A DNA stretch of 64,000 nucleotides from the NCBI GenBank assembly GCA_043228905.1, contig JBHGNT010000003.1, positions 16,988,001-17,052,000 of the forward strand, given 5' to 3'. The position numbers and the translations under genes are program-made. This stretch comes from Azolla caroliniana (lineage: Eukaryota; Plantae; Polypodiophyta). The first letter of the stretch is position 1; each line of letters begins with the position of its first letter. The notes beneath the pieces are model-generated. The model was not told the DNA's origin. It saw only the letters and a program-made list of their open reading frames with translations, and did not search any database. This document shows, one piece after another, positions 1-55,160 of the stretch.

Positions 1-3000
1 TGTAACAAGTTTCTCGGACCTCACACCATTTGCAGTTTGGAAGGAGACGATGTTCTTGCTTGGCGACAGGAGACATTTGCTTATGTGACACCAATCCAAA
101 CCGAGGAGGCATGGGGTGTACAACACTTTTGGTGGGAGGACCCAAACGCGAATTGAGTGGTCACTATATTTTGTCTTGATGTTACACACGAAGGTTCCGA
201 GGCAGGGCGATGTAGAACAATCGAAGCCAAGGAATTTATTGTTGCATACTTCGAGGTTTGGGGAACCTAGATGTTCCCACGTTTCGAAGGAGAAAAGGGT
301 TAGTGATGCTCCAGTGTCGATCACCGCTGTTAGAGGTACACTGTCGGCGAAGCATGGTAGGTGTGTTGTCACATCAATAGAGGTGCGTTGTGGTCTCTTA
401 CAAGTCACCGCCCTACTCCCTTGTTCATAGAGTTTGAATTGTTCTGGGAAGTCCACCTCTGTCGAGGTCTGCCGAGTGGTCGCATCCTCTTCCTAGCGTG
501 CGATTCGTTGCACTAGGCCTGCATCTCTTACGTCTGCCTGTTTTGGTCGGGTTACGAGAGTGGTGACATTAAAACACGAGATCGTGTCTCCATCCTCATC
601 GCGACACTTTGTACCAATAGGGTACATTGCATCGGTCGTGGCGAGGGCATGCACCCAATTCATCTCTGACGCATCAGAGGCTATGGATTGATCCTCTCTT
701 TCTCGTGCGTTCTCCGCCTTAGGATTAGTGGATTTTTGAGGAAACGGTTGACCGCTAGCCAAGATTTGGACTGTCTTTGTAAGGTTACACGCTAGGAGGT
801 TAGTCTCGAACTCGGTGGTTTTTGACCAGTCGTCCACGAGAGGGCTGCCTTCTTGTTCGTGCACCTTTTGTGTGTATGCTTTGATGCGGAAGGTTTTGTT
901 GTTTTTGCGCATGTAGATTGTATCATTCCCAAAATCCATGACGAGGTGGCTTACACGTAGGAATGGTCTCCCTAGTAACCACTCGTAAGCCACATGATTA
1001 GATGATCTTGTGACGACAAAGGTGAGATTGAACTCGACCCCGTGGATAGTGAAGTGGTGTGCAGGGATCATGCCTTCTGGCCGTTGGATAGACCCATCTG
1101 CCATTCAGAGTTTGACATCCGAAGGAAACATTTTTGGGCTCCCCCACTTACACCAACCTTCGTAGCTGACTATGCTTACCCCCGCTCCAGTGTCGATGAT
1201 CGCGTCACACGTCATGCCATTGACGCAAACGGGGAGAGTGAAACTAGTGTCGTCGCTTTCGAAGTGAGCTTCACATATATCGACCGGCGTTCCTTGGGGT
1301 TGTTTGGAGACTGTGGTCGTATGAGGGATGAGTGTGTCTATCTTTTCTCCATAACCCGCTGACAGGCCTCCATTGAGGTGCCGATGGACGTCATGCCATG
1401 GTTGGATGTCGAGTTGGAGCAGCTCTTCAAGTGTGAACTCTATTTCCTTAGCGAGTATAGGTTGTAGTTGGGGGTTGTCAGTCACGAAGGTGCTGGTGTA
1501 GCTCTGTACTTCGCGCAATGTGAGTCGTAATTTCAAATTTAATATTTGTTGGAGCAAGACCGTGTTGACTTCTTTGATTGGGGTAGATTGGGAGATGGGA
1601 GTGTCGGCTGGTGTTACGACAAGGGGGGGTGTACCCGTGTGTTGGGGTGCAGGATTTACCCATTCTTCAAGTTGGTCGAAGTTTAGGCTCGGAAGACTAA
1701 GCGATCTTTCGCACTGTCCGTGTCGGATGAGTTTGATGTACTCTTCGACCTTTTGTTTTTCAGCTACTGGGTTTGGGTATGCTGCTAGGTGTGCCGACAG
1801 CTCTTGGTTAGGGTTTATGGGTATTGTTTCTACATCTCCCTCCGGTTCTTGTTCTTGCTTTGAGGCCTGCGTGGATGCATTTTTTTTGGATTTTCGTCTC
1901 TTACGCGTAGTCGTGTGGAGGCCTTGGTCGTGACACTTTAAGTTATGAGCTATTCTCTGAGCTCGTGTGATGACGTTGGCGCCAACCGTTGATGGTACGA
2001 TAGATAACAAGTTTGCGCCAATCCTTTTCTTTTTTTCTGGGCAATCGGGTACTAAGTGATCTTTACCACACCCTAGGCATGATGCTTCTCTTTGGAACCA
2101 CTCGATAACGTCTTGTGACTGTTGAGTGAGACTTTGCACTGGTGGTTGTGGGGTTGTTTCGAGTGAGGGGTGTCGTGGTCGTTGTGCCATCGAGTTGTAG
2201 TATTCATGTTTGGTTGGGCACTCGCTAACCATGTGTGGGCCTTGGCAATTGAAACATTTCAATTTTGGCCTCCTTAGACCACTATTGTTGCGATATCCCG
2301 TCAACGGCCCTTGTTGTTCTCCTCTCAAGACGTAGACCGGTATTTGGTCACCTTCGAAGTCAACAAAGTGGGAAAGCACCTCTTCTTCAACACCATACCC
2401 CTGGTATGCTTCATATTCGGGGGTGCCCCCCCCAACCTGAGTTTGGTTATCGGTGGTATATTCTAGTTCAGCGAGGCGAGTGCCGATACGCGGTAGTGGG
2501 GGTTGTTGGGGCAGTATTGCTGGTAGTTGTGGGCGGCTTAACGGTGGAGGTGAGCGTGGGTGCTCTACCATTGGTGTTTGGCTATACCTTCCGTTTGGGG
2601 CTTGCCAACAGTTCTCTTGAGAATGCATCACGAAAGCTTTGCACCACTTACAGTATTGCGGCCGTCGTTGGTGGAGGAGGGGGCACTCATACCCCGTGTG
2701 ATGGCCGTGGCATACTGTACACCTTACATTTTCTCTTTGGGCGTATGCTTGGGGTCTTTCTATACGGGGTGGTCTCGGTGGCATCGGTAGAGTAGGGTCC
2801 GAGGGCTTCTCACGGTTGTTCGTAGGCGCTTGAGTGGGTATCCGTAACCCGCTCATTGAATCCTCGAAGGTCATCACTACCGTGCAAGCTTCAGTGAATG
2901 ATCGACACATCCTGACAATCAGGAAGTTTTGCAGCGTTGGATCGAACAACCCATTGATGAAGCGGCTCATCAATTTGTCATCTGACATCTTGTCGCTCGG

Positions 3001-4032
3001 GCTACAACAATGGTGTAGGCTTTTCGTGCAGCGTATGTAGTCCCTAACCGTCTCGTTTGCTTCTTGGTTGAGGGCGAAAAGTTGGTCGATCGGGTTCCAT
3101 TTATTCCCTCGACGAGCGAAGTTTATCAAGAAATCTTCGATGACATACCCGAAGTTCGCGACGATGTCTTCATTCAAGGTTCTAAACCAAATTACGGCTT
3201 GGTCATCAAGTGTAAGCCCAAATGCAGTTACTTTGGTAGTCTCTGAGAGGGGTTCATAAGCGCGGCATATTTGTTTGAACCTCTCGACGTGATCATAGGC
3301 GTCACCGAAACCGAGAAAACGGGGTACTAGTTTAGAAATGGAAGCACTCTTCCCGTTGTCGTTTGTAGGGTTTCTCGAATGGTCCGTAGGTGCTCGCCCT
3401 TTTTCCATCAATGCCACGAGGGTTTGGATGGATTGTAACGCTAGTGCGAATTCGGTGATTGGGGATGTCGAGGCAGTTTGGTCGGGTGTAGGGGTCGTGT
3501 CCATACGTGGTGGTGTCGGGTGTCGTTGCGTGTGGGCATCGTTTGGACTGTCGCTCGTTGTGGTCGAATGCGGCGCGGGGCTACGCTCATGGCCTCGACG
3601 GTGCATATGCGACGACGCTTCTAGGAGGTGAAGTTTTTGTTGCACTCGTGTGAATCTGTCTTTCCTTTCTGCCAAAGCAGCTTCGATATCTCGGGTGATG
3701 CTTTTCGGTTGTCCTCCTTTCGGGAGTTGTACCGCCCATATATTGATTTCTTGTTCTATCACCCATAACTCTTGTGCGGCATCCCGTATGTGTTGCTCTA
3801 CGTTGAGTGGGTATGCCATTGGGCTCTCATGTAGTGGGGGCGTGGTGAGAGGTGCTTTAGTTCCTAGGCTCGATGGGAGGTTCATGTTTGGTAGCGTCCC
3901 CGGAGTTAGCCACCCTCTGTGGTACCGAGTCGGGTTAGGTGGGTCAGCATCGTGTGTTTGGTTGGTTTGGGTGGACTCCTCCTGGCGTGTGGATCGGGTT
4001 TTAAACATCTCTGTCCATAAGGATCCGGCCAT
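1..4032 (-). pseudogene. gag-protease-protease polyprotein frame with two in-frame stops (TGA 1105-1107, TAG 493-495)
   Basis: ORFs 1105..4032 and 493..1104 and my translation of 1..492 share one frame. It contains a retrotransposon gag-like region (AVIWFRTL...LNQEANETVRDY), 4 CCHC motifs, protease 1 (AIIDTGAG...LLGRPFL) and protease 2 (AVIDTGAS...LLGLDWC). Confidence 0.85.
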
Positions 4033-4086
4033 GTTTTCTTGTCAAGCTTTTGTAGGTTCGTCGAACTTTAAATCTTTCGTTGAACT

Positions 4087-4522
4087 TTGAATCTTTCGTC
4101 GAATGATGAACCTTCGTCGAATGATGAGGGTTCATCGAAGGATGAACCTTCGTCGAATGATGAACCTTTGTCGAATGATGAGGGTTTGTCAAATGATGAA
4201 CCTTCGTCGAATGATGAAGGTTCGTCGAATGATCAACCTTCGTTGACGGATGAACCTTCGTCGAATGATCAACCTTCGTCAAATGATGTGAACCTTCGTC
4301 GAATGATGTGAACCTTTGTCGAAGGATGAACCTTCGTCGAATGATGAAGGTTCGTCAAAGGATGAACCTTCGTCGAATGATCAACCTTCGTCGAAGGATG
4401 CGAACCTTCGTCAAATGATGAAGGTTTGTCGAAGGATGAACCTTCGGCGAATGATGAGGGTTCGTCGAATGATCAACCTTCGTCGAAGGATGCTTCTCTT
4501 ATCGAACTCTGTTCTTTCGACG
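4087..4522. repeat. ~18-bp tandem repeat array (TCGAATGATGAACCTTCG / ...GAAGGTTCG variants) in the Gypsy 5' leader
   Basis: About 20 imperfect copies directly visible. They generate the periodic spurious ORFs (HHSTKV, SSNDEP). Confidence 0.95.
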
Positions 4523-4717: not shown

Positions 4718-5023
4718 TAAAAAACAGAAAATCAACTTAATTAAACTATGAATTAGTGAGAAAAAACAGAAAATCAACTTAATTAAACTATGAATTAGTG
4801 AGAAAAAACAGAAAATCAACTTAATTAAACTATGAGTTAGTTAGAAAAAACAGAAAATCAAGTTAATTAAACTATGAATTAGTGAGAAAAAATAGAAAAC
4901 CAACTTAATTAAACTATGAATTAGTGAGAAAAACACAAAATCAACTTAATTAAACTATGAAATACTGAGAAAAACAGAAAATCGACTTTAATTAAACTAT
5001 GAAATAGTAAGAAAAACAGAAAA
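4718..5023. repeat. ~41-42-bp AT-rich tandem repeat (AAAAAACAGAAAATCAACTTAATTAAACTATGAATTAGTGAG), about 7 copies
   Basis: Directly visible tandem copies between the PBS and the 18-bp array. Confidence 0.95.
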
Positions 5024-5111
5024 TAGTGGTTCTCTTTTGATTTCTTCCTTCGTTAAGTGGGTTGCCTTCGAGTTTTCGACTACTCGAAATAGGCTTCAAG
5101 CGTAGGTCGCA

Positions 5112-5129
5112 TCCTCGACAGCGGCGCCA
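5112..5129 (-). promoter_or_regulatory. Primer-binding site TGGCGCCGCTGTCGAGGA (tRNA-Asp-like, Athila-type)
   Basis: Lies 6 nt inside the 5' LTR end. Resembles the TGGCGCCGTTGCCGGGGA PBS complementary to plant tRNA-Asp, with mismatches. Confidence 0.7.
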
Positions 5130-5135
5130 AATAGA

Positions 5136-5717
5136 TGTTAAGGATCTATGTATCGATGGAGTAAGCTCCTCGATGTCGTGGCGGGATTCGGACCGTTGTA
5201 TACCCTCTTGATGGCGAATCGGGCGGAGATGGTTGTCGGATACCTCCGAGCCTCACACTCACTCAACGATTAGTAAATGATTAAGCACGATATCTCTCTC
5301 ACTCTCTCAAGCTCTCTCTCATAGACAATAGATTAATAGATATAGACAATAAGAAGAAAGAGTATGTCTATTATTAACCCTCTTTGCTAAGAGGTCTAGC
5401 ACCAACAAGGAGAGAGATTAGTGTTCTCTAACTCAACACTTCACTAATCTCTCTTAAGCTCAAAGGTTACAAGAAGGAGGAGAGGAAGCTCTAGCTCTAA
5501 TCAATAGGAGATCTTTACAAATGGGAGAACCCCCACAAAGCCACTACTATGTGGTTTATATAGCTTTCACGTTTAGGGTATGGGCCTTTCACACTCTGAT
5601 GTCCTTTAGCCCTCTTTCCTCTTGTCATTCCCTCTTCGTAGGTCCTTTAACCATATTGTGTCCTTGTTGATGCGCTCTTCTTCACAACTAGTCGTGGTGT
5701 TATCCAAGGGCTTAACA
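5136..5717 (-). repeat. 5' LTR (582 bp) of the Gypsy element
   Basis: 7-bp inverted termini TGTTAAG/CTTAACA, adjacent PBS, and LINE sequence resumes at 5718. The partner LTR is outside the window. Confidence 0.85.
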
Positions 5718-7033
5718 GGTTCCCGTAATCTCTTCCATGCAGTGGCACAATCGCTACTCATGAGCATGTGGTAGAGTTCCCAATATTGGGATGCCTCCCA
5801 TGCTCGTCTCTTACGACGTGTCATCTTGCGCATTTCTTTACGAGCTTGTACTGAGGTAATACTACCACTGAGTTGCGATATTGTAAGTTGTCGATGTAAG
5901 CACCTACAATCCTCATCATACCATCTATTTTGTGGCATAGATCCTACTTTACCTTGATTGGAGTGTTTCGTGTATGGGAAACTGCTAACTGTTGCAGAAT
6001 GAAGGATGTGTGTGAGTTTCGTACTAAGGCTCTCTAAAGGTAGGGAGGGATCAAGGGAGGAGAGATGGGCTTGAACATGTCGAGCATATATGTCAGAGAG
6101 CTCATGTGTGAAATGTATTGTGATGTCATGGCGTGGTTGACTAGAGTTGGTGATGTTAGAGATATCACATTTTATCTCGAAGTATAAGAAACTATGGTCT
6201 GCGCCAATAGGACATGGGGCCACTCGGAAGGAGTTAATCATGTGGGTAGCTTCAGGGCGTCCTATTAAATAATCGACTGTGCTTTCCCCTCCTCCATGTG
6301 GGAAACATGTGAGCTCTTCTGAACCTGGCCACTTGGCTAAACCATTATATATGACCATCTGGTGCCGACTACCGAGTTCGAGCAAATGATGGCCAAAGCT
6401 CGTGGCGTCTGCACCTTGATCCTTTGATCTACGTGTGGTGTCTATGTCTGAAGGATCGACATTTACCATTTCTAGGTTTCTATTCATTTGAAATATTGTG
6501 CATTGTTGGGATTGGGTTCTCGCATTAAAGTCTCCTACAAGGAATACTTCGCCTTGGGAAGAATATCGGATTATGTCATCCGATAGAGGTTCATATGGGG
6601 AAGGCCCATGTGGCACTCCGTCATTAACTAATCTCGCCTTGCTAGCCAGATTATAACGAGAGACTTTCGGGGGGAAGTAACAAATGGCAAAAATTACTGC
6701 CTTGTCCTTGCTTGTGGAGACTTTCACCCACATAAAACGAGCTTCTGGGTCTGTGCTAAGTATTTCTATCCTATTATGTAGCTCCCTCCGAAACAATATT
6801 GTGAAACCTCCAGATCCCCTGGTAGTGCATCGACGTGAGGTTTGTCTAAAAGCCGACTCCCAACGGAATCCTTCGACTCGTGGGAGTCCCCTATTTGGGG
6901 TTTGGTGTGTTTCTACTAGGCAAACTATATCTGATTCCTTTAATATCCCCTCTAGGCGGCCGGGGTGTGTCCAGAGTGCGCCGTTACAATTCCATAAGGT
7001 CATCCTAATTGTGTTTTCTGTCACATGGGCCAC
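5718..7033 (-). pseudogene. LINE ORF2 N-terminal AP-endonuclease domain (truncated by LTR insertion)
   Basis: Motifs TLWNCNG, IVCLVETH, GSGG, CYFPP, VGDFNAR, STVDY, GADH, NRWYDEDC. The last ~36 aa of ORF 5606..7033 are read-through into the LTR. Confidence 0.88.
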
Positions 7034-7400
7034 ACGCCGTCAATTAGTAGTGCGATCATTTATGATCACTCGCCCATCTCGATAAAAGGCGCGATGCCTG
7101 TCTTTGCGAGCTTGCATAACCTTTGGCATACAACTCTTGCGATGCTCAATTTGCATCTTGGTGAGGTCTTCATCGAGATAGATAGGGTCCCCACCCAATC
7201 CTCGAAGAATTGGTCTCTTCTTAAAGAAAGTGATTCTAGAGTCTAAGTCTTTAAATTGAAGAACTAAGGCTCTCTTCCTAGTTGTGTCGCGTCCGGCCCT
7301 CCAAGCTTTGGTGATAGGTAGGGTCGTTGTGTACCCTAACATTTTCCCGAGTGTTTGTGCATCCTCGTCCGGGGATGCACCTTCCTTGAGCCCAGTGACA

Positions 7401-8100: not shown

Positions 8101-9310
8101 TCACTTCGGCATGGGATGTCTCTCCAACCCGACTCTCTTTCGGCACGCTCCCAGCTTGTCGGGTGTGAGCACTTTGGTCAGCATATCTGACCCGTTCTCT
8201 TCCGTGTGGATCTTCGTCAGCACGAACTCCTGGTCTTCTATCCTTTCCCGGATCCAGTGATATCTTCGCTGGATGTGCTTCGTCCGGGAGTGATAGGCCG
8301 CGTTCTTCGCAAGGTGGATGGCACTCTGACTGTCGCAGTAGAGTCGGTACTCCTCTTGCCGGATACCGAGCTCTCTAATGAAGTCCTTCATCCATATTAT
8401 TTCCTTGCCGGCTTCCACAGCCGCCATGTACTCCGCCTCCGTGGTTGACAGCGCAACCGTCTTCTGCAGCCTCGACTGCCACGAAACGGCTCCCCCTGCA
8501 TACGTCATCACATACCCTGATGTGGACCGGCTGGTATCTGCATCAGCCGACATATCAGAGTCAGTAAAGCCGTCGAGTTCGGGCTTACCGGAGCCGAATC
8601 GGAGGCACACGTTCGCCGTGCCCTTCAGGTATCGGAGTATCCACTTGACCGCGTTCCAGTGCTCTTTGCCGGGATTGCTCATGTACCGGCTCACCACTCC
8701 AACTGCATATCCTATGTCCGGTCTCGTACACACCATGGCGTACATCAAGCTCCCGATGGCTGAGGCATACGGCACTTTCATCATATCCTCCTTTTCAGCC
8801 TTTGTCTTGGGACTTTGCTTGCTGGACAGCTTGCAGTTTGCCGGGAGGGTTGACCCGACCGGTCTTGCTTCCGACATGTTGAACCGTTGAAGCACCTTTG
8901 TCACGTACTTCTCCTGTGACAGCCACAACTGCTTCTTCTTCCGGTCCCGGATGATGTGCATCCCTAGTATTTGTCTCGCCGGACCCAAGTCCTTCATTGA
9001 GAAGGTTCGGTGAAGAGCCTTCTTCAGCATCCGTATCTTGACCTGGTCCCGTCCGACGATCAACATGTCGTCCACGTACAGGAGGAGTATTAGAAAGTCT
9101 CCTCCTTCGAACTTCTTCACAAACACGCAGTGGTCGGACTGCGTTTTGAGGTACCCTTCGTCGGTCATGAAGGAGTCGAACTTCCGGTACCATTGCCGGG
9201 GAGCCTGCTTCAGTCCGTAAAGGCTCTTCTTCAACCGGCATACCAGGTGCTCCTTCCCTTTCTTCTCGAATCCTTCCGGTTGCTGCATGTAGATCTCTTC
9301 TTCGAGGTCA
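8101..9310 (-). CDS. Copia-1 pol C-terminal part (RT YVDD + RNase H)
   Basis: [50 protein letters not shown]. Joins in frame to 16876-19739 after removing the insertion and one TSD copy (1357 aa reconstructed). Confidence 0.93.
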
Positions 9311-9314
9311 CCGT

Positions 9315-9453
9315 TGTCGGGGTAGTTGTGGTTCGTGCGGCGAAGTCGCGGGGACTAAGGTTAAGGGGAGTTGAAGAAACTTAAGTTTAATAAGGCTTGT
9401 ATGGTGATGATAGAATGTTTAAGGATAGTAAGATGAAGAGTTACAAGTAATGT

Positions 9454-9520
<67 letters not shown>

Positions 9521-10292
9521 GAGCATAGATAAAAGATAGAGACAATGTGTGATTCAAGAAAGAAGATTGAGACAAAGTATGATTCTAGAAAGAAGATTGA
9601 GACAAAGTATGATTCAAAGAACAAGAGTATATGATATAAGCATGATGTATATTAAAAATATAATATTTTACCAACTTTACAATCCTTGATCGCAAGATGA
9701 ATCTTCTCAATACCGACCCTTGATTTGAACCCTCGACCTCCACTTTGAAACGAGAGGTTCTCCACCCAACGAGCTAATCTTCTTTACTTGCTTCTATTAT
9801 TTTCTCACTCTCTCTTCTTTGATTCCTTGATTCCCTTTTGTTTTCCTTTCCTCTCTTTTTATAAGTATTTCCATGCATATGGTAATGTCATGCATGTAAT
9901 GCATGAGTTTCATCTTATGCATGATCGCCATTTGGCGCACATGCATTGCATGTGATGCATGATAGCCATCATGCTCATTTGAGCTCCCATGTATTGGGAT
10001 AAGTATAATGATGGATATAACCCTAAAACAAATAACCTAGCTTAGTGGTGTATGGTTTGTGCTTGATATACAAGGTTGAGGGTTCAAGTTCCTCAATTTT
10101 ACTTAATACAATATATAGCTTCATTCTTATATCATGAAGCACATTTATTACACACTTTTACAAATAAATAGCCTAGCCTAGTGGTATGTACATTGTACAT
10201 CGTATATAAGGATGTGGGTTCAAGTCTCTCAAATATTATTAAATACAACATTTAAGCTCATTTTTATATCGTGAAGCACATTCTTCACGACA
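9315..10292 (-). repeat. 3' LTR (978 bp) of the nested Gypsy, with (GT)n(GA)n, 30-bp repeats, CATG cluster and tRNA-like modules
   Basis: Direct repeat of 15894-16875. Confidence 0.95.
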
Positions 10293-13200
10293 CCCACCCC
10301 CTCTGAACTTGCACATTGGTTGTGCAGAGTTCATCCAACACTTCTTCCGATTCTTTTAGTTCTTCTACTTCTTCATAAAATTCAGGCTCTAATGACTCCC
10401 TCCTTTTAAATATTTTAATCCTTTTTCCTGCAATTGGGATACGAATTTCTGTCCCATCTAATTCATTGAGGAAATATGTGGCTTTATCTGTTATTTTCCT
10501 AACTTCATAAGGTCCAAACCATCTTTTTGCAAACTTCCGAATAGTACTGTATTGATTATCTAGGCTATTATCATATACTAATACCCAATCTCCCTCTTGC
10601 ATCTTTCTTGGTCGTATTCTTTTCATCTTGTCAAATCTGTCCTTATTCTTGATTCTTGCCTCTTTCAATCTAGTAGCTGCTTTTTCTATGTCTTCTATCC
10701 TTGATTGAAGTTGTCGTATTCGAACCGCAAGTAAATCTTCCCTACTCATTTCTGATTCCCAAGGCAACACAGCCCATGTAGTTATCTTTTCTTCAATTGG
10801 CATTATTGGCTTCTGTCCTGTGATTAATTCTGCAGGCATATATCCAGTAACAGTGCTGTGAGTTGTCCTATCAGCCCATAGTGCATAGGGTAAGGTTTTT
10901 GGCCAATCACTAACCCGTCCTCTACATGCCTTTGCCAAAGCTTTGACTATTGGCCCATGTCCCCTTTCTACCTTTCCATTAGCTTCTGGATTGTACGCCG
11001 TTGTCAAAGAAAGCCGAATTCCTATTTTGTCGAAAAAATCTTGAGCTTCCGCAGAATTGAGTTCTCCCCTATCTGCCACTATCTTCCCGATACATCCATA
11101 TCTACAAACAATGTCCTCCAAGATGAATTGACATACTCCTAATGTCCCTTTTGTTCTCAATGAACGACCTTCCACTTGATTTGTTAGATCTTCTCTAGCA
11201 AGAACCAAGTATCTCTTTTGTCCTACTCCAAGTGGCATTGTTACCAAATCTATCATCCACTTGTAATGCACCCCCGGTGAGTATGTTGGGTGTAATTCAT
11301 CACAAAATTTTACATTTGAATAATATTGACAAGTGGGACAAGTTTCCACATACTTTTTTATTTGCTCATAGTATCGAGGCCACCAAAATCGTTCTTTAAT
11401 CTTACTGAAAGTGGCCCACACTCCTCGATGACCAGCCCATTCTTTGTCATGCAGCTCTTTGATTATCTCCTTTCTTTGCCCTTCAGAACCTATTACTCTT
11501 TGCGGGTTTCCAGTCTTGGTTTTCGGATGTCGCCATAGATATCCTTCATACAGGAAGAACTTATGGGCTTTCTTGCGAAACTGTGCGAACTCTTTTCTAG
11601 ATCGACCTTTGTACTTGTCAGGGGTTTGTAGGTATTTTCCTATTTCCTTGAATTCATCTTCATACTCCTCTTCTAGAAACTGCATTCCTCCTTCCCGAGT
11701 AATGCTTGTGGTAAGTACTGTTTGTTCTTTGTCCTCATCGTCCGAGTCTGGAATCTCCTCTTCCTCATACCTTGCTCTTGATAACATATCTGCTACTGCA
11801 TTTCTATTCCCAGAGATATGTCGAACTTCAGGGTTGATTGATCTAATATAGATACACCATCTTAACATGGCTTGATCTGGAATATCACAATTAGCTATGA
11901 TACCCAGAATAGGCAAACAATCTGTTTCTATTATTACTTCAGCACCAATTAAGTAATCTCTGTCTATCTTTACAGCTGTTACTATCCCCCATAGCTCTCT
12001 TTTCACCTGTGCATATTTTCTTTGTCGACCACTAAGAACCTTTGCCCCGAATCGGACTGGATACCTTTCTTCCCTATCTTGTTGGCTTATCACCCATCCA
12101 ATTCCAATGGGACTAGAGTCTACTGTGAGATATATGGGCCGGGTGTAGTCTGGTTGCTTCAATGGTGGAGCTTGTGCCAAGTAGTACTTCAATTTCTTCA
12201 TTGCCTCTGAATGCTCTTCACTCCATTCAAATGTCTCTCCTTTTCTTAGGAGTCTATATAAAGGTTCAGATAAATGGGCATAATGCGGAATCCATTTACA
12301 GTAAAAAACACATACCCCCAGAAATCTTCGTACTTCTGAGATGGATGTACATTCCTCTTGCATATTTTGAATTGCATTGACTTTGGTTGGGGATGGCTTT
12401 CTCCCATACGGGCCACACATATGACCAACTATTAATATCTCTTTTGCCCCAAATATTGACTTCGCCCCTGATAAGGTCAAATGCACTTCTTCCATCCTTG
12501 ATAGCACCTTCTCACAATCCTTGATATGATCAGCAACGAATTGACGGCAACCACTTTCGTCCAATTCCTCATTCTTCTCTTCCTCCTTGCATCCCTTAAT
12601 TGGAACATCATCTAGAAAAGGCATTGTAATATGAGGAATAAAATCACGAAGTACCTTGTTCATTCCATTCATCATATGCGCCACTGAGTTGGTCGCTCCT
12701 TGCGGCAAGGTGCACATCCGTACTAACCCTATAGGTGTCTTGATAGAAGTTATATCTCGACTTTTGATAGCAAGTTGAAATTGATCATACCCGGAATAAA
12801 GGTCTCCCATTGAATATATAGCTTTTCCTGCAAACATCTCAGCAAACTCATCCACAATTGGCCCTACTCCCGAGTTTCGGATTGTTACCTTATTCATGGG
12901 TTGCATATCTTGGATAAATCGGAGTCGCCCATCTTTCTTTAACACAGTGAACCATCGACTCGAGTAAGGAGCGTTCGATGGTTCCAAGATACCCATCCTT
13001 ATCTTTTCTTTCAAAAGTTCTAATAGTTGAGGGATTCTAGCCCTAGGCATGGGTATTGGCTTAAAGTTCCATGGAATATGAGGGATAGTGAATATAACCA
13101 TGGGCTCCACAATTTCTGGATCCACACACCCTATTTCTTCCGGTTGGAATGCGAACGCCTTTCCATGCCTTTTTAACATCTCCCTGAACTGCTTTTCTTC

Positions 13201-13749
13201 AGCGGGTAATAGGAAGTCACCCCCTCCTATTTTCATCCCTTGTATTGTTTCCGGAGTAAACACATGTCCTACCTTTCGTGGGTCTCTGATCATTGGCTCT
13301 GTGGCTGCTTCTTTGATTGCCTTTTCACTATCCCCTGGAAGTGGAGCAGCAATAGGACGAACCTTCTTCTCCACTGTCTTGTATTTTGTTAGTACATATG
13401 CTTCATGATCCTTTCGAGCAACTTCTTCAATGACCTCATACATCTTGATTGAATGGACAGGAACTTGGATTTCGTTGTCTTCTTCCATTGCTTCCAAATG
13501 AGTTATTGTATCTTCAAAACTTAATTCTTCAAACATATCCTGAATTTCTTCATCATCATCTATTAATCCAGAACACTTAAAGTACTCGAAAGCATTTTGT
13601 ATTTTATTATTATTTACTTTTAGTATAAAAGTAGCACCATTAGATGAGATTGTACAAGGAATATCTTTATTTACATTATTATTTATGGGGTTTTCTTTTA
13701 TGCTCGGGCTATCACAGCCCCTACCTGTAAAAGCCCTATCTAAAAATCC
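10285..13749 (-). CDS. Gypsy pol (RT, RNase H, integrase). The frame is open upstream of ATG 13536 to the gag stop, so it is probably reached by -1 frameshift
   Basis: DLYSGYDQF, LPQGATNS, PFLDDV, TVDSSPIGIG, integrase H-H-C-C (HDKEWAGH...CPTC) and D-D-E core (IDLV, ADRG, NGKVERG), WFGPYEV. I translated 13537-13749 without a stop. Confidence 0.93.
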   Translation of the reverse strand, partial: GFLDRAFTGRGCDSPSIKENPINNNVNKDIPCTISSNGATFILKVNNNKIQNAFEYFKCSGLIDDDEEIQDMFEELSFEDTITHLEAMEEDNEIQVPVHSIKMYEVIEEVARKDHEAYVLTKYKTVEKKVRPIAAPLPGDSEKAIKEAATEPMIRDPRKVGHVFTPETIQGMKIGGGDFLLPAEEKQFREMLKRHGKAFAFQPEEIGCVDPEIVEPMVIFTIPHIPWNFKPIPMPRARIPQLLELLKEKIRMGILEPSNAPYSSRWFTVLKKDGRLRFIQDMQPMNKVTIRNSGVGPIVDEFAEMFAGKAIYSMGDLYSGYDQFQLAIKSRDITSIKTPIGLVRMCTLPQGATNSVAHMMNGMNKVLRDFIPHITMPFLDDVPIKGCKEEEKNEELDESGCRQFVADHIKDCEKVLSRMEEVHLTLSGAKSIFGAKEILIVGHMCGPYGRKPSPTKVNAIQNMQEECTSISEVRRFLGVCVFYCKWIPHYAHLSEPLYRLLRKGETFEWSEEHSEAMKKLKYYLAQAPPLKQPDYTRPIYLTVDSSPIGIGWVISQQDREERYPVRFGAKVLSGRQRKYAQVKRELWGIVTAVKIDRDYLIGAEVIIETDCLPILGIIANCDIPDQAMLRWCIYIRSINPEVRHISGNRNAVADMLSRARYEEEEIPDSDDEDKEQTVLTTSITREGGMQFLEEEYEDEFKEIGKYLQTPDKYKGRSRKEFAQFRKKAHKFFLYEGYLWRHPKTKTGNPQRVIGSEGQRKEIIKELHDKEWAGHRGVWATFSKIKERFWWPRYYEQIKKYVETCPTCQYYSNVKFCDELHPTYSPGVHYKWMIDLVTMPLGVGQKRYLVLAREDLTNQVEGRSLRTKGTLGVCQFILEDIVCRYGCIGKIVADRGELNSAEAQDFFDKIGIRLSLTTAYNPEANGKVERGHGPIVKALAKACRGRVSDWPKTLPYALWADRTTHSTVTGYMPAELITGQKPIMPIEEKITTWAVLPWESEMSREDLLAVRIRQLQSRIEDIEKAATRLKEARIKNKDRFDKMKRIRPRKMQEGDWVLVYDNSLDNQYSTIRKFAKRWFGPYEVRKITDKATYFLNELDGTEIRIPIAGKRIKIFKRRESLEPEFYEEVEELKESEEVLDELCTTNVQVQRGWVS

Positions 13750-15854
13750 TGGGAAAACTCTTCATCCATCTCTTGAATTGGATGTTCCCTCAAGCATTCT
13801 TTGTTTCTTTCATGGTTGGGCCTCACGGTTAAGAATTGGACAGTCTTTCTTCCATCTTGACTCTTGATTCTCGCGAAAGCCGAACCATCATCAATAACCT
13901 TTGTTTCCATCCTCACTGCGGTGATGTAGGGCTGGCCAAGGATGACGGGGTAGGTTGATCGATCCTGTACAAAGAAATTTTGATTCACCGAGACATCACC
14001 AATTGTTACCTTCACACTAGGACATGCTCCGAATAGATCCTCCGTAGTTTCTGTGGCAGCTCTTATTTTCCACCCATGATTCTTGTCGATCGGCCATCGT
14101 CCTCGAGCGTAAAATTCCGATGACATCATGTTAATCTCTGATCCATGATCGATCAAAGCAATACATGGAATTTGCTGCTCCCCAATTTTTGCAGGTGCCT
14201 CCGTTGTTGCTCGAGCCCAATGGTCCCTTGTATAGTGACTCCTATCCCCTTCATGGACGCCAACATCATTCTGGTTTTTTACACTTGCAGCATTGATGGT
14301 GCTACCATACAAATCTTGGAGTGTTGCTGCACACCCTCCCGTAATTTCCTCCGTCACCTGTCTCTTCCTTCTAATAATATCTATGATAACTTCATGAAAT
14401 TCTTTCTTTGCTATACCCAACACTTCTCTTAAAGTAAATTCTACCTTACTATTTAATATTCTTGTTTCTAGTACCTTTTTTATATCCGTCGTTGTTTCTA
14501 TGTCTGAGGCAAGCTTGAAAGATGGGCCTGTCTTTCCTTTTACTTTATCAGCTTCCTTCGGCTCAATAGCACCCTTTTCCATCTCCCTTCTCTTTTGTTC
14601 TCGTGTCTCATGTCTCTTTGTCGGATCAGCTTCCTCAGCTCTCTTCCGCTTCTCTTCCACTAGCACATCTTGTGCATTCACTTGGGCGAATGCTGATAGC
14701 GCGTCTACTGGATCATTCCATCCAGTGAAGTTTCGTATTTCATCTCCCGCTCTTTTTAATTCATCCACTCGAACCTTCCCTTTTCTTGCATAGTCCATCA
14801 CATCTTGCCAAAAGCCAGATCCACCATATGAGTCTTCTACGCGCAATCCTAAGGTTGCCACGGATTGTATCGCTTGAGTCGTTTCTCTCTCGGCATCTTC
14901 CATTAGCCTTTTCATTCCTCCTCGCCCGAAGTTGAGTTGAAGTGGTTGTCGAGTCTCAGTTGAGTGAATCTTGCCATCTTGATAGTAGATTTTATTATGA
15001 TTAAGAGCATCCCTATGCTCTTGACAATCTTTCTTCTGGTGGTCGATACTATCACACCACATACACCTTCGGACCATTCCACCTCCCTGCCTTGATGAAG
15101 TCGAGCTTTGTCCCGATTCTAGCTTCGTCACTTTGATCGACAAGTCTTTCATGCCTTTCACTAATTCGTGTAAGAGTGATTCTTCTACTTTCTTTTCTCC
15201 CGACTCGTTCCCCGTTTCTTCATCATTTCTGTCGGGCAACTCCATAAACCATAACTTTCTTTTGCAGAAATGGGCGCACGCCCTTTTCACCTCCTCCCAA
15301 TCTTCGGTAAGTCCACTTGGACTATTCTGATCTTCTAAAAGCATTCCCAAGTCCTTCCTGTCTTTAATATTAGTAGCTTGTAGAAACAATATTACTTTAT
15401 CTGGCATTATTATATTTCTATCTCTAACACTTAGTTGCTCAAATCTTTCAGAAAACTCTTTTAATACTTCCAAAACACTTAAATGTTTATTAGACTCTAC
15501 CCAATCCATGAAAGCTCGCCTTGTCATCCTTGACATATCGTTGAGGTTGTATTCATTGAGTAATGCCCTTTCGAATGTTGTCCATGTCTGATTCTCCCTT
15601 TGGAGCTCTTGGATCCTCTCTTGTAGCCCAATCGCAGCGACTCGACTAAAGCTATTAATTTTTGTAGCTTCGTCGACACCGCGTTTAAGCATTTCTTCAT
15701 TATAAATCTTCAGAAATCTTGTTAAATTTATACCTTCGAAGATTCCTACTCGTGCGAGAATATTGTCGACGGCTTTGTCGATGCTTGCCATCATCCCTTG
15801 TTCCCGCATCACTCGTTCCATCATCGTACACATAAGCCTCATTTGCTCCTCCAT
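13740..15854 (-). CDS. Gypsy gag-protease (704 aa)
   Basis: Zinc knuckle CMWCDSIDHQKKDC, retropepsin-like ALIDHGSEIN...VILGQPYI. ATG lies just downstream of the PBS. Confidence 0.9.
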   Translation of the reverse strand: MEEQMRLMCTMMERVMREQGMMASIDKAVDNILARVGIFEGINLTRFLKIYNEEMLKRGVDEATKINSFSRVAAIGLQERIQELQRENQTWTTFERALLNEYNLNDMSRMTRRAFMDWVESNKHLSVLEVLKEFSERFEQLSVRDRNIIMPDKVILFLQATNIKDRKDLGMLLEDQNSPSGLTEDWEEVKRACAHFCKRKLWFMELPDRNDEETGNESGEKKVEESLLHELVKGMKDLSIKVTKLESGQSSTSSRQGGGMVRRCMWCDSIDHQKKDCQEHRDALNHNKIYYQDGKIHSTETRQPLQLNFGRGGMKRLMEDAERETTQAIQSVATLGLRVEDSYGGSGFWQDVMDYARKGKVRVDELKRAGDEIRNFTGWNDPVDALSAFAQVNAQDVLVEEKRKRAEEADPTKRHETREQKRREMEKGAIEPKEADKVKGKTGPSFKLASDIETTTDIKKVLETRILNSKVEFTLREVLGIAKKEFHEVIIDIIRRKRQVTEEITGGCAATLQDLYGSTINAASVKNQNDVGVHEGDRSHYTRDHWARATTEAPAKIGEQQIPCIALIDHGSEINMMSSEFYARGRWPIDKNHGWKIRAATETTEDLFGACPSVKVTIGDVSVNQNFFVQDRSTYPVILGQPYITAVRMETKVIDDGSAFARIKSQDGRKTVQFLTVRPNHERNKECLREHPIQEMDEEFSQDF

Positions 15855-15871
15855 TTCTCCTCGTCGCCGCC

Positions 15872-15889
15872 TTCACGTCGGGTTCACCA
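15872..15889 (-). promoter_or_regulatory. Primer-binding site TGGTGAACCCGACGTGAA (tRNA-Trp)
   Basis: 4 nt from the 5' LTR. Matches the tRNA-Trp 3' end complement as I recall it (cf. ASLV PBS TGGTGACCCCGACGTGAT). Confidence 0.85.
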
Positions 15890-16103: not shown

Positions 16104-16875
16104 GAGCATAGATAAAAGATAGAGACAATGTGTGATTCAAGAAAGAAGATTGAGACAAAGTATGATTCTAGAAAGAAGATTGAGACAAAGTATGATTCAA
16201 AGAACAAGAGTATATGATATAAGCATGATGTATATTAAAAATATAATATTTTACCAACTTTACAATCCTTGATCGCAAGATGAATCTTCTCAATACCGAC
16301 CCTTGATTTGAACCCTCGACCTCCACTTTGAAACGAGAGGTTCTCCACCCAACGAGCTAATCTTCTTTACTTGCTTCTATTATTTTCTCACTCTCTCTTC
16401 TTTGATTCCTTGATTCCCTTTTGTTTTCCTTTCCTCTCTTTTTATAAGTATTTCCATGCATATGGTAATGTCATGCATGTAATGCATGAGTTTCATCTTA
16501 TGCATGATCGCCATTTGGCGCACATGCATTGCATGTGATGCATGATAGCCATCATGCTCATTTGAGCTCCCATGTATTGGGATAAGTATAATGATGGATA
16601 TAACCCTAAAACAAATAACCTAGCTTAGTGGTGTATGGTTTGTGCTTGATATACAAGGTTGAGGGTTCAAGTTCCTCAATTTTACTTAATACAATATATA
16701 GCTTCATTCTTATATCATGAAGCACATTTATTACACACTTTTACAAATAAATAGCCTAGCCTAGTGGTATGTACATTGTACATCGTATATAAGGATGTGG
16801 GTTCAAGTCTCTCAAATATTATTAAATACAACATTTAAGCTCATTTTTATATCGTGAAGCACATTCTTCACGACA
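15894..16875 (-). repeat. 5' LTR (982 bp) of the nested Gypsy
   Basis: Direct repeat of 9315-10292, followed by TSD CCGT. Confidence 0.95.
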
Positions 16876-19739
16876 CCGTGAAGGAATGCCATCTTCACGT
16901 CCATCTGTTCTACCTCGAGGTCCATGCTTGCCGCTATGCTCAGCACCGTCCGGATGGAGGTCATCTTCACTACCGGGGCAAATATCTCGTCGAAGTCGAC
17001 GCCCTTCTTCTGCTGAAACCCCTTCACCACGATCCTGGCTTTGTATCTCGGGGGGTTTCCGGCATCTCCCGGTTTCAGCTTGAACACCCACTTGTTTCGA
17101 AGTGCCCGCTTTCCTTTCGGCAACTCCACAAGTTCATATGTGTGGTTCTCGTGCAGGGAATCCATCTCGTCCTGCATGGCACTCAACCACCTGCGGCTCT
17201 GGGTGTCATGTTTTGCTTCTTCAAAGCTCTCCGGCTCCCCCTCGTCAGTTAGCAGCACGTGCTCTGGTTCCGGAAATCTCCGGGGGGCCCTTCTCTCCCT
17301 TAGAGGATATCTTCGTTCCGGAGCTTCGGTAACCGGTTCTTCCGATTCTTCTTCATCCGAATCCATTTCGGGATCGGGGCCGGTTCCGGTATCATTTTCG
17401 TCTTCTTCGGCGGGTTCTGTTTCTTCACCGTCTTCGGCCGGATCCTCGAGTGCTAACCGGTCCCTTGCCGGTCGGGACTGCTCCTCGTAGAGTTGATCCT
17501 CACCGGTCGACTTGGAGCTCTTCATCTTCTTCTCCGACTCCAAGTCGGCGAGTGTCTTGTCCTCCATGAAGATGATGTCTCGACTCCTGAATATCTTCTT
17601 GTCGACCGGGTCCCATACTCGGTAGCCGAACTCGTCGTCGCCGTAACCGAGGAATATGCATGGCCGGGTCTTTGGATCTAGCTTTCCTCTCCGGTCCTTT
17701 GCCACATGCACGTAAGCGAGACACCCGAACACCTTCAGATGCCGGTAGGATACTTCCTTACCGGTCCACACTTTCTGCGGCGTGTCTCCGTCCAAAGGTA
17801 CTGAGGGTGATCTGTTTATCACGTATGTCGCCGTCGACATTGCCTCAGCCCAAAACCCCTTGGGTAATTTCGCATGCGCCAGCATACTCCGGACCCTCTC
17901 CATTATGGTCCGGTTCATCCTCTCGGCCAGCCCGTTCAGTTCCGGTGTCTTCGGCACAGTAAACTCGAGCCGGATTCCCTTCGAGCGACAGTACTCCTGG
18001 AACTGCCCCCGGTATTCCCCTCCGTTATCCGCTCGTATCGCTTTCAGCTTCTTGCCGGATTCTCTTTCCACTCTCGCGTGGAGTTCTTTGAAGACGGACA
18101 ATACTTGGTCCTTTGTCTTCAATGGTGCCGTCCACATCTTCCGGCTGTGATCATCAATGAAAGTCACGAAGTACTGGGCTCCGCCATGTGACTTCGTTTC
18201 TACCTGACACACATCAGTGTGCACCAACTCCAGTGGTGCGCTACGTCTCGTCGGTGGCCTTGAGTGGAAGGAGGTTCGGTTCTGCTTACCGGCCAGGCAA
18301 TCGGTGCACTTCTCCAGGTGCACATGCTTCACTGGAATAAGGTTGTCTTCTGCAAGCCTCTTCATCCCCTTCTCACTCATGTGGCACAGTCTCTTGTGCC
18401 ACAGCTCACCGGCAGTGTCGACTGCCACGTTCAGCTCTTCCGGACATAACCGGGCATTCATCAGGTACAGTGTGTTGACCTTCCGGGCCCGAGCCACTAT
18501 CAGGCTCCCCTTGCTGAACTTCATGACACCGTTCCGGATGCTACCCGTGTAGCCTTCATCATCTAGCCTCCCGGCCGAGATCAGGTTCAATCGGACCTCC
18601 GGAACGTGTCGCACATCCTTCAACAGCATCTTGCATCCGGTTGATGTCATCAGCCACACGTCTCCTATGCCGGCAATCCGGCATGTACCTTCATTTCCCA
18701 TCCGGACACAGCCATGCTCACCGGCTGTGTAGGATGAGAAGTATTTCTTCTCCGGGGTCAGGTGGAACGACGCTCCGGAATCGACCACCCAGGTCATCTC
18801 GTCACCGGCAAGGTTCAGCTCCCTCTCTTCGGTAATGAGCATTATTTCTTCTTCACTTGCCGCGAGTGCCGTCGTTCCTTTCCGGTCCTGCCCTCGCCGA
18901 TCCGGACCTCTCCGGTCCGTGGCTCCCCGGTATGCACCGTTTCTCTCCGGTGACTTCTTCGAGTCGGTGTCGTCGGCTCCGTTGTCCTTTCGGTAATGCC
19001 GACAATTCTTCCGGAAGTGCCCCGGCTTCCCACAGTGGAAGCATGTGGGTCTTCCTCTTGACTGCGACCGGGTCCCCGACTTCTCCCGTCTTTGCGGACT
19101 CCGGTTCCATTGTCTTCCCCGTTCCGATTCGGTAAGCAGTGCCTTCGAGTCGGAGACCGGTTCTTTATCTTTCCGACGCGCTTCCTCATTTAGAATGCTT
19201 GTCTTTACCGTTTGTAGAGACAAGTTATCTTCGGTGCAGGAGGTGCTGAGAGTCACCACCAAGTTCTCCCAGCTATCCGGCAATGTACACATCAGGATGA
19301 TGGCTTGCATTGCATCCTCCAACGGGAACTTGATCGCCGCAAGCTGATTCACGAATCCCATGAACGTGCTTACGTGTTCCACCATACTCTCGCCGTCCCG
19401 GTACTTGAGGTTCACTATCTTTCTCATCAGGGAGGTCCGGTTCAACGCATTCTTCCTCTCGTAGAGGCCCGACAGCTTCCTCCACATCTCATATGCGTTG
19501 GTGTCGTTCGCCACGTGTTGTAGAACACTCACGTCGACGTATTGCCGAATGGTTGCAACGGCTTTCCGGTTCAGAAGCCTCCACTCCGTCTCAAGTACCC
19601 CCTTGGGTATTTCCGACCTGTCGATCGGTTCATACAGGTCCCGAACAATGAGCAGATCCTCCATCTTTATCTTCCAGTCGGCGTAGTTCTGCGCATTCAG
19701 CACCATCATCCCCGGCTGCCCGCTGCTGCCGCCTTCCAT
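16876..19739 (-). CDS. Copia-1 gag-PR-integrase-RT N-part
   Basis: True start MEGGSSGQ at 19739. CFHCGKPGHFRKNC, WVVDSGASFH, LWHKRLCH...CTDC, RADNGGEY, GLAERMNRT, DVKMAFLHG cut at the insertion. Confidence 0.94.
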
Positions 19740-19770
19740 TTTCTGTGTTACCGTCGCTCTGATACCACTT

Positions 19771-20460
19771 TGTTGAAATTCCGTGCTCGGCCACAACCGA
19801 GGAATAGGATCAACTCACAGAAAACAGGAAATACAAAATACACGAAGACTATAGAGAGAGGAGTACACAGGATATTTTACGTGGAAAACCCTAAATGGGA
19901 AAAACCACGGGAGTCCTCAAACTCCAACTATCACTATGAACAGGGATGTACAATGGTGAAGCTTCAAGGCAACAACCTTGAGCTCACTGTCTTCGCCACA
20001 GGCGGCGGCAATACACAGAGGCAACGACCTCTTCGTCTCTCTCTCTCTCTCTCGCTCGGCTGCACTCACTTCGCTCTCTCTGCTGAAAACATAAAATGAG
20101 CAACAACAACTACTGTTTGCCCTAAGTCATATTTATACACATATGACTTTCGGGCTATTTACAAATATAGCCTCAAGGGCTCTTGGCAAACATATTCACA
20201 AATATGTCCCCGCATCCGGATCTCTCTCCGGGTACATTCGTCATCCGGCTCCGTCACCGGGGTCTTCATCATCCGGCTCCGTAACCGGGGTCTTCAGCAT
20301 CCGGCTCCGTAACCGGGGTCTTCATCATCCGGATCCGTATCCGGGTACTCTTCATCCGGCTTCATGCCGGGTACTCTTCATCATCCGGTTCCGTAACTGC
20401 AACCGGGCTTGCCGTCATTCATCTCCGGACATCCCATCCGGAGGGACCGAAATCCCAACA
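19771..20460 (-). repeat. 5' LTR of Copia-1
   Basis: Direct repeat of 7401-8090 with adjacent TGGTATCAGAGC PBS. Confidence 0.96.
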
Positions 20461-21359: not shown

Positions 21360-21661
21360 CCAAAAAGCGAAGAGAGCCAAAAAAAAGAGAAGAGAGCCAA
21401 AAAAAAGCAAGAGTGGAGAGAGGAAGAAAAAGCGAAATTGTTTTTATTGTTGCGCTCTCTATCAGTAACGGAATCAAGCATAAAGACATGCGTTGGAAAG
21501 CCCTCGATTAGAGCTTCGTAACGAGATATAGCAAGTTAAATTTGGTGGTCTGTGCGAGAAGCAACGATTAAAATAAGGAATCTTGTGTTGTTGGCATCCA
21601 CATACTCAACACACATTGCGGGTCTTCGATTGTATTCATCATCTTCAACCTCTTCAATCGG

Positions 21662-23023
21662 GTGAGTTCCGGTTGTCTTTCTTGTTCATGGAAAATTGTT
21701 TTTATCCTTATCACTATCACATCAAGAATAATGGATATAAACATGAATTCCTCTCAAATTGTGGGGGACATCGATATGGAAACAATTGATCCAAAAAAGA
21801 GTAATGTGATGGTTGAATGTAATCGTGAAAGGGAAGACATTGGAAGCTCTAAGAGGTTTAAGGGTATTGAGAAAATTAATGAGAAAAAAGCGACATATGC
21901 CGAAGTAATACATGTAGATGAGGTTGACAAGGATAATTGTAATTGGGATACTTTATGGGGAATTGCCAATACCTTATTGTTTGATATTGTGGAAGAAAAT
22001 GAAAATGCAGCGAAAGAATGCAATGATGAGGATGTGCATGATGTGGATGTTGATGCTAAGGTAGTGTTGCAATCTTTTGATGTATTCTATGATCGTGCAG
22101 TTATATTATTATTTACTGGGAAACTCCCATACATTAATTGGATTAAACAATGGTTAAACACAATCGTGTCACAAAATTGTGTTGAAAATATATATGCAGG
22201 ACCACGAGGGTTTTATGATGTAGTGTTTCGTTCACCGGAACATCGAAGTGCACTGTTGGCTAAAGTTCCAGTGTTTTTTGATAAACGATTGGTGCATGTA
22301 ATGCAATGGTCCCCTGTTGTGGACTATCATGCTTTGTTGAAACAAGAATGTCCTATTTGGGTAACAGTGGATTGTAAGCATGCTTTTTTATGGCCACTTT
22401 TACCAGAATTGATGAGTCTAATGGGTAAAGTGTTGGTATCTTCACATGCAAATGCTACAAATAAGTGCAGATTTTGTGTGTTATGGGATACAAGTCGTAA
22501 GAGGCCAGGATGGGTGCGTATGAACACACCTGGAATGAAAAGACTTTGTCTTAAATTGAAGTGGGAGACATTTGCAGGTCACTATTTTGGATGTGGTGAA
22601 TGGGGTCACTTTATGGCGGAATGCCATCGTCATTGTCCTTCAACTATAGAGGTTCCTAATGAAGGGAATGGTAAGGAAGGAGTTGAGAGAGATGTTGGTG
22701 TGTCAGATATGGTGGTTGTTATGGATGAAGGAACATCATCTAGAGCAGGTTATAAAGAGGTTTCACTTCAAGGTTTGGGCCCTAAGAATAAGGGAACTCA
22801 ATCTATGGATACGGAAAAACAAAATTTGGTGGTTATAGATAAGGGGAAAAAACTGTTGGATAGAACTAGTAATGATGTTGTTGTTGAAAAGGATTGGCAT
22901 CGAGTTCAAGGCAAGTCGAAGAGCAAATCAATGAATATGCAACATAATAGTTTGCCCACTACTTGTGAGACTACTTGGAAAAGTAATTCGGGAACTAGGG
23001 AGGGTCCTCGAAAAGTTCCTTGA
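21662..23023 (+). CDS. L1 ORF1 (DUF4283-like RRM plus degenerate CX2CX4HX4C)
   Basis: GFYDVVF...PVFFDKRLVHVMQWSP...PIWVTV...YFGCGEWGHFMAEC. Start codon uncertain. Confidence 0.8.
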   Translation: MSSGCLSCSWKIVFILITITSRIMDINMNSSQIVGDIDMETIDPKKSNVMVECNREREDIGSSKRFKGIEKINEKKATYAEVIHVDEVDKDNCNWDTLWGIANTLLFDIVEENENAAKECNDEDVHDVDVDAKVVLQSFDVFYDRAVILLFTGKLPYINWIKQWLNTIVSQNCVENIYAGPRGFYDVVFRSPEHRSALLAKVPVFFDKRLVHVMQWSPVVDYHALLKQECPIWVTVDCKHAFLWPLLPELMSLMGKVLVSSHANATNKCRFCVLWDTSRKRPGWVRMNTPGMKRLCLKLKWETFAGHYFGCGEWGHFMAECHRHCPSTIEVPNEGNGKEGVERDVGVSDMVVVMDEGTSSRAGYKEVSLQGLGPKNKGTQSMDTEKQNLVVIDKGKKLLDRTSNDVVVEKDWHRVQGKSKSKSMNMQHNSLPTTCETTWKSNSGTREGPRKVP

Positions 23024-49700: not shown

Positions 49701-49706
49701 TGGAAT

Positions 49707-53612: not shown

Positions 53613-53665
<53 letters not shown>

Positions 53666-53809
53666 CAAATGTGAGAGATAGATAGATAGATTATATTATC
53701 GTCTTCGGAGGTCAAATATGACCTATGAGACCAAAAAATATTACATTTCACGTGATACGTGTGAAAGTGAAAGAGAGAGGGAGGGTGAGAGAGAGAGAGA
53801 GAGAGAGGG

Positions 53810-54786: not shown

Positions 54787-54854
<68 letters not shown>

Positions 54855-54868
54855 ACTTGTCTGTTGTC

Positions 54869-54900
<32 letters not shown>

Positions 54901-55110: not shown

Positions 55111-55160
<50 letters not shown>

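Follow-up and report, generated by a model that had tools for sequence, protein, structure and literature searches.

A second retropepsin behind the integrase of an Athila-like Ty3/Gypsy retrotransposon in Azolla caroliniana

Structure of the element in the window

The window, i.e., the whole stretch of 64,000 nucleotides of A. caroliniana DNA that was analysed, begins at G000:C3:16988001 in a searched genome of 523 Mb. Its left end holds part of a 6775-bp retrotransposon whose two 582-bp LTRs share 98.97% identity (6 differences). The target site duplication (TSD) of this copy is 5 bp; among the four elements examined, three have a 5-bp TSD and the ends of the fourth were not resolved. The features, in window positions unless stated otherwise, are as follows.

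5136..5717, minus strand: 5' LTR, TG...CA, 582 bp (LTR pair comparison)
5112..5129, minus strand: primer binding site (PBS), a match to the 3' end of the host tRNA-Asp after a 6-nt AT-rich spacer
4719..5024, minus strand: tandem array of the 5' UTR, 42-bp unit, 7.3 copies
4057..4492, minus strand: tandem array of the 5' UTR, 18-bp unit, about 22 copies
1..4038, minus strand: single gag-pol frame with two stops, continuing past the left end of the window
2947..3216, minus strand: Gag capsid (Retrotrans_gag, PF03732; 41 bits), then several Cys/His knuckles
904..1242, minus strand: first protease (PR1), a canonical retropepsin (DTG) with a stop inside at 1107-1105
384..903, minus strand: PR1-RT linker of the full element, with a stop at 495-493
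379..383, minus strand: junction of an in-frame deletion relative to full copies, about 2.96 kb gone (RT, RNase H, integrase, GPY/F and a long helix)
34..366, minus strand: second protease (PR2), a retropepsin (DTG), from frame translation and profile matches
G000:C3:16986943-16987524, outside the window: 3' LTR
5606-7039, 21572-23023, 30153-30845, 46985-47779 and 53789-56558: LINE pieces
8101-9354, 16812-19814, 23736-27839 and 33881-34738: Copia
10285-15872: Gypsy with DUF4100
35143-39162: chromodomain Gypsy
58349-58921: fragment of a RING E3 ligase gene of host type (RING_XB3-XBAT31, 74 bits)

Other elements are dense at 5606-39162 and 46985-56558. The tRNA-Asp 3' end has 144 matches on C3, C8, C10, C11 and C15 of G000, many in tandem arrays (968-bp spacing on C8), and all three loci checked are tRNA-Asp genes.

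A basic tail motif that follows PR2 and the 3' LTR of this copy lie just outside the window, and a 3' extra ORF was lost with another deletion, about 6.1 kb in size, upstream of the 3' LTR. The window copy has no RT, RNase H or integrase; it is a non-autonomous deletion derivative that multiplied without an RT or integrase of its own. PR1 and PR2 look adjacent in the window because this copy lost the genes between them.

Two retropepsin domains in one frame

The first-pass annotation had described two DTG retropepsin domains in one minus frame, and translation recovers both, PR1 at 1242-904 and PR2 at 366-34. Read through its stops, the frame yields 1346 aa comprising Retrotrans_gag, the Cys/His knuckles and two stretches matched by gag-asp_proteas/Asp_protease_2 in an HMM scan. 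The spacing had also been judged correctly: the domain starts are 292 codons apart, with a linker of about 180 codons. PR2 has the marks of an A2-type retropepsin, i.e., D-T/S-G, the hydrophobic-hydrophobic-Gly helix motif and, by prediction, the retropepsin fold, and shares 26% identity over 99 aa with PR1. Taken alone, the window PR2 scores 24.3 bits on PF13975, below the cut-off of 28.2, while a profile search of another copy gave 34.1 bits for PR2 and 35.0 bits for PR1. A sister copy on C8 encodes both proteases in one open 1106-aa frame; the two stops are not common to this sister and thus represent decay of the window copy, as had been proposed. The PR1-RT linker is predicted to be disordered in a sister copy.

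Domain order in the family

Searches of the genome with each protease gave at least 150 scored matches each. The census covers 104 of the at least 150 PR2 matches (the top 103 plus one other), a few of which may be one locus repeated on a second contig; two further stretches, chosen by PR1, both proved incomplete. The order integrase-helix-PR2 was found in 67 of the 104 PR2-picked stretches, and PR1...integrase...PR2 is visible in 37 of these. GPY/F or the helix alone precedes PR2 in 10, the helix is missing in 4, and nothing was found upstream of PR2 in 3. The deletion type of the window, PR1 and then PR2 within 1 kb, accounts for 12/104, and a second deletion type, PR1-GPY/F-helix-PR2, for 8/104. 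Helix and PR2 share one frame in 74 of 82 cases. Since these stretches had been selected by PR2, 30 copies were selected by the integrase tail instead, and 29 of them have PR2 or part of it behind that tail at a near-constant spacing of 387 nt. Unbroken 2553-aa ORFs of this family in the protein database (P0123 and P0124, which lie on assembly contigs and may each merge several copies) likewise hold two protease stretches. From the census order and these ORFs, the working order is therefore Gag-PR1-RT-RH-INT-GPY/F-long helix-PR2-basic tail in one frame, with about 1,270 residues from PR1 to PR2.

The two domains belong to one element, as the first-pass annotation held: PR2 is present in 29 of the 30 integrase-picked copies, and a nested element between the domains was rejected, there being no LTR or TSD at that place. 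The tandem arrangement itself does not describe the family. RT, RNase H and integrase separate PR1 from PR2 in full copies, only the deleted type brings them together, and the copy census rules out a tandem or tethered protease as the family design; full elements do not encode the two adjacent lobes of a pepsin.

Full copies contain a long forward extra ORF 3' of the PR2 tail, which gave no Pfam match above cut-off and, in five pieces, no match to PF03078. This region is roughly 3 kb long, includes a coiled-coil-like part (L139:188-3746, L032:2190-5722) and is gone from the subfamily of the window. Just left of the window (about 9716-9865 in L021), the tail contains a motif of 50 aa that includes W-V-P-K and Q-G-W-H-K-G; subfamilies differ in having one copy of it or two. 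This motif is kept in distant relatives and matches no known family. Copies of the second deletion subfamily (L049, L051, L055, L057, L060, L065, L067, L076 and L085) have the PR1 linker joined to GPY/F, with helix and PR2 kept and one common junction in the three copies aligned, and in the distant protein P0078 a protease is joined directly to GPY/F. In one full copy (L036-L037, G000:C3:12.38-12.39 Mb) PR2 is interrupted by an insertion that comes with a tandem duplication of 2884 bp at 99.9% identity, either a recent event or an assembly artefact.

Selection on PR1, PR2 and neighbouring domains

Net divergence between subfamilies was employed because decay after insertion had to be removed; it rests on pairwise counts only, with groups defined on the PR2 tree. 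Net dN/dS is 0.19-0.24 for PR2 (95% ranges 0.09-0.61), 0.02-0.06 for PR1 (where the older groups have few PR1 rows, 2-3 or, in the deleted types, 6-10), 0.01-0.03 for RT, RNase H and integrase, 0.02 for the helix, and 0.2-0.5 with wide ranges for the tail motif. PR2 is thus under purifying selection, as the first-pass annotation would have it, at a net value of about 0.2, with a constraint about ten times weaker than that on PR1. The dS of PR2 (0.35-0.46) is below that of RT (0.6-1.1), which inflates the PR2 ratio and may reflect recombination. Within PR2, whose sub-block borders were drawn after the per-column values were known, the active-site (DTG) block has a net dN of 0.003 (ratio 0.01), the helix motif and last strands 0.036 (0.06), and the middle 0.080 (0.30), as against 0.324 (1.40) in the linker that follows, an in-frame control.

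The catalytic Asp is kept in 87/96 copies of PR2 and 48/50 of PR1, and the three of RT in 36, 37 and 33 of 43; that of PR2 is kept as often as the catalytic residues of RT and integrase. The full DTG triad is intact in 59/96 copies of PR2 and 34/50 of PR1, and the losses in PR2 are scattered over the tree. An identical stop at the third codon of the PR2 triad recurs in five of the 96 copies, on different branches (C14, L125, L098/L101, L083), and so marks a hot spot. An overlapping or antisense ORF was rejected as the source of conservation, the other frames over PR2 having 13-71 stops per 1000 codons versus 4.9 in frame.

Relatives and origin of PR2

A GPY/F-helix-PR2-tail query gave 98 matches among 1.84 billion representatives, of which about a dozen span integrase tail to protease at 23-35% identity. 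The named spanning relatives are P0016, P0014 and P0143 from Adiantum nelumboides; P0008, on a 1.6-kb contig and labelled Enterobacter, is presumably plant DNA within that assembly. Most distant relatives are fragments, and PR1 was seen on the same chain in none of them. DTG or DSG occurs in 27/32 database proteins with a protease after GPY/helix (near-copies of this family included), and the catalytic Asp and Gly are near-invariant among relatives at 20-35% identity. The tail after PR2 is basic in distant relatives too, with W-x-P-K repeats around an x-Q-G-aromatic-x-x-G block.

Among 119 long relatives with an integrase match, three have a protease behind the integrase (P0137-P0139) and one further flagged row is two joined elements. 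The other 115, including all other named flowering-plant and Riccia rows, have none there, a separate downstream ORF being outside this test. In an integrase tree of 61 chosen rows, one clade (95/85) unites all eight PR2-bearing rows with three that end at PR2 or short of it; without two long rows the values are 93/83, and the clade is found in 94% of bootstrap trees. It lies apart from the named flowering-plant relatives. A scan of JGI metagenomes gave 18 loci, none with a protease after the integrase and several ending near it, and a search of sequencing runs listed no RNA run as holding the element. In the sister subclade P0137-P0140 the HHCC zinc-finger block of the integrase is duplicated before the integrase core, with two Integrase_H2C2 stretches in the three proteins scanned, a second domain duplication in the PR2-bearing clade.

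The first-pass annotation took the duplication of the protease to be old, and this is probably correct. A tree of 58 protease domains lacks resolution; in it a branch of 98/87 places the family PR1, along with long outgroup rows, on the same side as PR2. A PR2 profile ranks the family PR1 second of 40 canonical proteases (57.5 bits). Both would fit an old duplication within the lineage while falling short of showing it. A PDB sequence search with PR2 gave weak matches (best protease, E value 0.05), and the ESM Atlas, as leads only, places the PR2 part at 0.83 to an RVP cluster and the tail at 0.91 to short plant clusters.

Structure models

The predicted GPY/F-helix-PR2-tail model consists of an SH3-like small beta domain for GPY/F, a 41-residue helix (70-110) and a retropepsin at pLDDT over 90. 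The helix has a modest heptad pattern, with hydrophobic residues at a/d at 0.46-0.62 versus a background of 0.31-0.37. The solved folds nearest to the PR2 model are the retroviral-like protease domain of Ddi1 (PDB: 4rgh, 3s8i, 7d66; TM-score 0.76-0.79 on target) and retroviral proteases, all of them homodimers. Ddi1 is equally the nearest fold to PR1; this likeness is therefore uninformative on PR2 function or origin.

A deleted-type copy with a naturally open frame was modelled from a shallow 29-row alignment; the prediction has two confident retropepsins and a disordered linker (pTM 0.44). Its single domains superpose on single retropepsins with Z of 11-15.6 at about 2.5 A, while both together give an rmsd of 7.5 A to 3ka2, 10.1 A to 4eq0 and over 8 A to pepsins. 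The match of the two domains to a covalent HIV-1 protease dimer, at 7.5-10 A, is a loose one over 179 residues. Of the intramolecular DTG/DTG pair envisaged by the first-pass annotation, this weak model thus predicts the two retropepsin folds and no canonical pairing.

Classification and comparison with known systems

The element has the TG...CA LTRs, TSD, PBS and PPT of Ty3/Gypsy elements, and the order GAG-PR-RT-RH-INT is present in full copies and in P0124, the window copy being without RT-RH-INT. Pfam scans of P0123, P0124 and P0126 gave one RNase H region and no Chromo. By structure the element is Athila-like, with no chromodomain, no aRH, a tRNA-Asp PBS, a 5-bp TSD and a forward 3' extra ORF; the assignment was set by these structural marks rather than by RT-RH-INT references, and the element is not filed as Athila proper. 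According to the available text of Neumann et al. 2019 (PMC6317226), Athila is a clade of non-chromovirus OTA Ty3/Gypsy elements, and it has in common with the present family the 5-bp TSD, the tRNA-Asp PBS, a single Gag-Pol frame, the lack of aRH and chromodomain, the forward 3' extra ORF, of which a minority contain ATHILA ORF-1, and a length of about 14 kb. Unlike the PR2 family, the Athila table of that paper has no extra polyprotein domain and no protease among extra-ORF matches, and the only extra domains tabulated there are aRH and chromodomains. The PR2 family also differs from Athila in that its integrase lies outside the clade of named flowering-plant relatives. Phygy, Selgy and TatI were rejected; they need a 4-bp TSD and a tRNA-Trp or tRNA-Ala PBS.

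Tat elements with aRH are sister OTA lineages in which a Pol enzyme was likewise doubled, the extra copy lying downstream of the integrase in one structure, although there the added domain is an RNase H rather than a retropepsin (PMC10508981, PMC13468544). Tat Z1/Z2 are without aRH and occur in seed-free plants according to the same surveys, and the PR2-bearing clade may therefore be one of these Z lineages. Both surveys cover ferns, and their available sections make no mention of a second protease. The integrase of chromoviruses also has an extra domain after GPY/F (PMC6317226), a chromodomain in place of the helix, catalytic-type retropepsin and basic tail found here. As to the window copy, a 3-kb deletion of RT-RH-INT is reported to be common in Brassicaceae ATHILA, and gag-protease-only non-autonomous ATHILA elements lost about 3 kb of RT-RH-INT and multiplied in like manner (ATHILAfinder preprint, 10.64898/2026.03.20.713144). 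The deletion in the window copy, in contrast, joins PR1 to a second protease, which the available text of the preprint does not report for those elements.

The nearest case in the literature is Wendovirus, an endogenous member of the Caulimoviridae (PMC9794742), i.e., a plant reverse-transcribing element which also has two aspartic protease domains, the second of stated unknown function. Unlike the PR2 family, it has neither integrase nor LTR, and its proteases are encoded near each other, in two ORFs that precede RT (PMC9794742). A bdelloid rotifer paper considered as precedent was a false lead. Our literature search found no LTR retrotransposon with a second protease; subscription papers, supplements, REXdb files and Repbase/GyDB entries may still contain a mention.

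The received view is that LTR retrotransposons have a single protease, located before RT. A selected second protease behind the integrase in a whole clade is a real polyprotein layout that has apparently gone undescribed, similar in kind to the extra RNase H of Tat elements or to the chromodomain of chromoviruses, which has a role in targeting. It probably marks a lineage of seed-free plant elements that has not yet been described. The layout would be missed by design, because the REXdb survey (PMC6317226) treated elements with a repeated domain as chimeras and excluded them, and DANTE_LTR cuts away flanking sequence in which further domains lie. Because PR2 is small and predicted to be well folded, with PR1 of the same element as a control, the question of what a second protease cuts is directly testable, for Wendovirus too.

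Proposed role of PR2

We propose, at a probability of roughly one half, that the PR2 encoded behind the integrase of this Athila-like lineage is active, forms its own homodimer, and has a substrate other than the usual Gag-Pol sites. The hosts of the lineage are probably ferns, judging from the relatives described above. PR1 would perform the standard processing of the polyprotein, a role assigned to it because it is as constrained as RT. PR2 would retain catalysis by means of its frozen DTG block and helix motif, while its flap and substrate-side region would drift at about ten times that rate, in line with what a substrate that differs or is less strictly defined should produce. Retropepsins need a dimer for activity, and the 41-residue helix together with integrase multimers would bring two copies of PR2 together; in the deletion type of the window the helix is gone and PR2 is kept. 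With its basic W-x-P-K tail, PR2 would either accompany the integration complex or be released from it by cleavage. The suggestion of two specialised proteases, one of those made by the first-pass annotation, remains the best reading. The likeliest target would be a host protein or the 3' accessory protein of the element itself. More tentatively, we speculate that PR2 on the integrase tail of a fern retrotransposon might cut a host protein, e.g., a silencing or chromatin factor, at or en route to the insertion site, in counter-defence or targeting.

Somewhat unlikely is a role of PR2 as a helper in the maturation of the element, where it would cut late or distal Gag-Pol sites (e.g., the integrase end) or back up PR1. 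PR2 and PR1 are alike in fold and catalytic motifs, and PR2, being in the same polyprotein, would occur in particles at a 1:1 ratio to PR1. Both deletion subfamilies mostly hold PR2 in frame with Gag-PR1 (876 nt spacing in 8/12 copies of type A), although two in-frame founders are only a 1-in-9 event. One protease, moreover, suffices for the 115 long relatives described above, and a constraint looser than that on PR1 fits fixed internal sites less well.

The position right after GPY/F, in the slot of a chromodomain, the strongly conserved helix, the repeated W-x-P-K motifs of the basic tail and the relaxed overall constraint would all suit a non-catalytic dimerisation or binding module that targets or assembles the integrase. 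We nevertheless regard this as unlikely. Dead enzymes usually lose the catalytic Asp, whereas here Asp and Gly persist across distant relatives and the active-site block has undergone almost no net amino-acid change.

The heterodimer or tethered pepsin-like pair of PR1 and PR2 that the first-pass annotation had put forward is doubtful. Encoded in one polyprotein, the two would meet in the particle, and the deleted subfamily of 12 copies, which multiplied, holds both about 180 codons apart in one frame, with the loose alignment to the covalent HIV-1 protease dimer mentioned above. However, in the working element the domains are separated by some 1,270 residues, their evolutionary rates differ greatly, and the model, though weak, combines a disordered linker with a poor two-domain fit. 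Least of all do we credit a functionless remnant of a nested or recombined second element: nested elements do fill this genome and surveys treat repeated domains as chimeras, yet spacing and frame are fixed across subfamilies with integrase dS up to about 1, the joint is free of LTR and TSD, selection is purifying and distant relatives have the same order.

Six database proteins (P0026, P0030, P0048, P0055, P0060 and P0070) contain two retropepsin-like domains in true tandem, separated by a short linker, and inspection by eye revealed neither Gag nor RT nor integrase in them; they fit the idea of a tethered protease better than the element in the window does.
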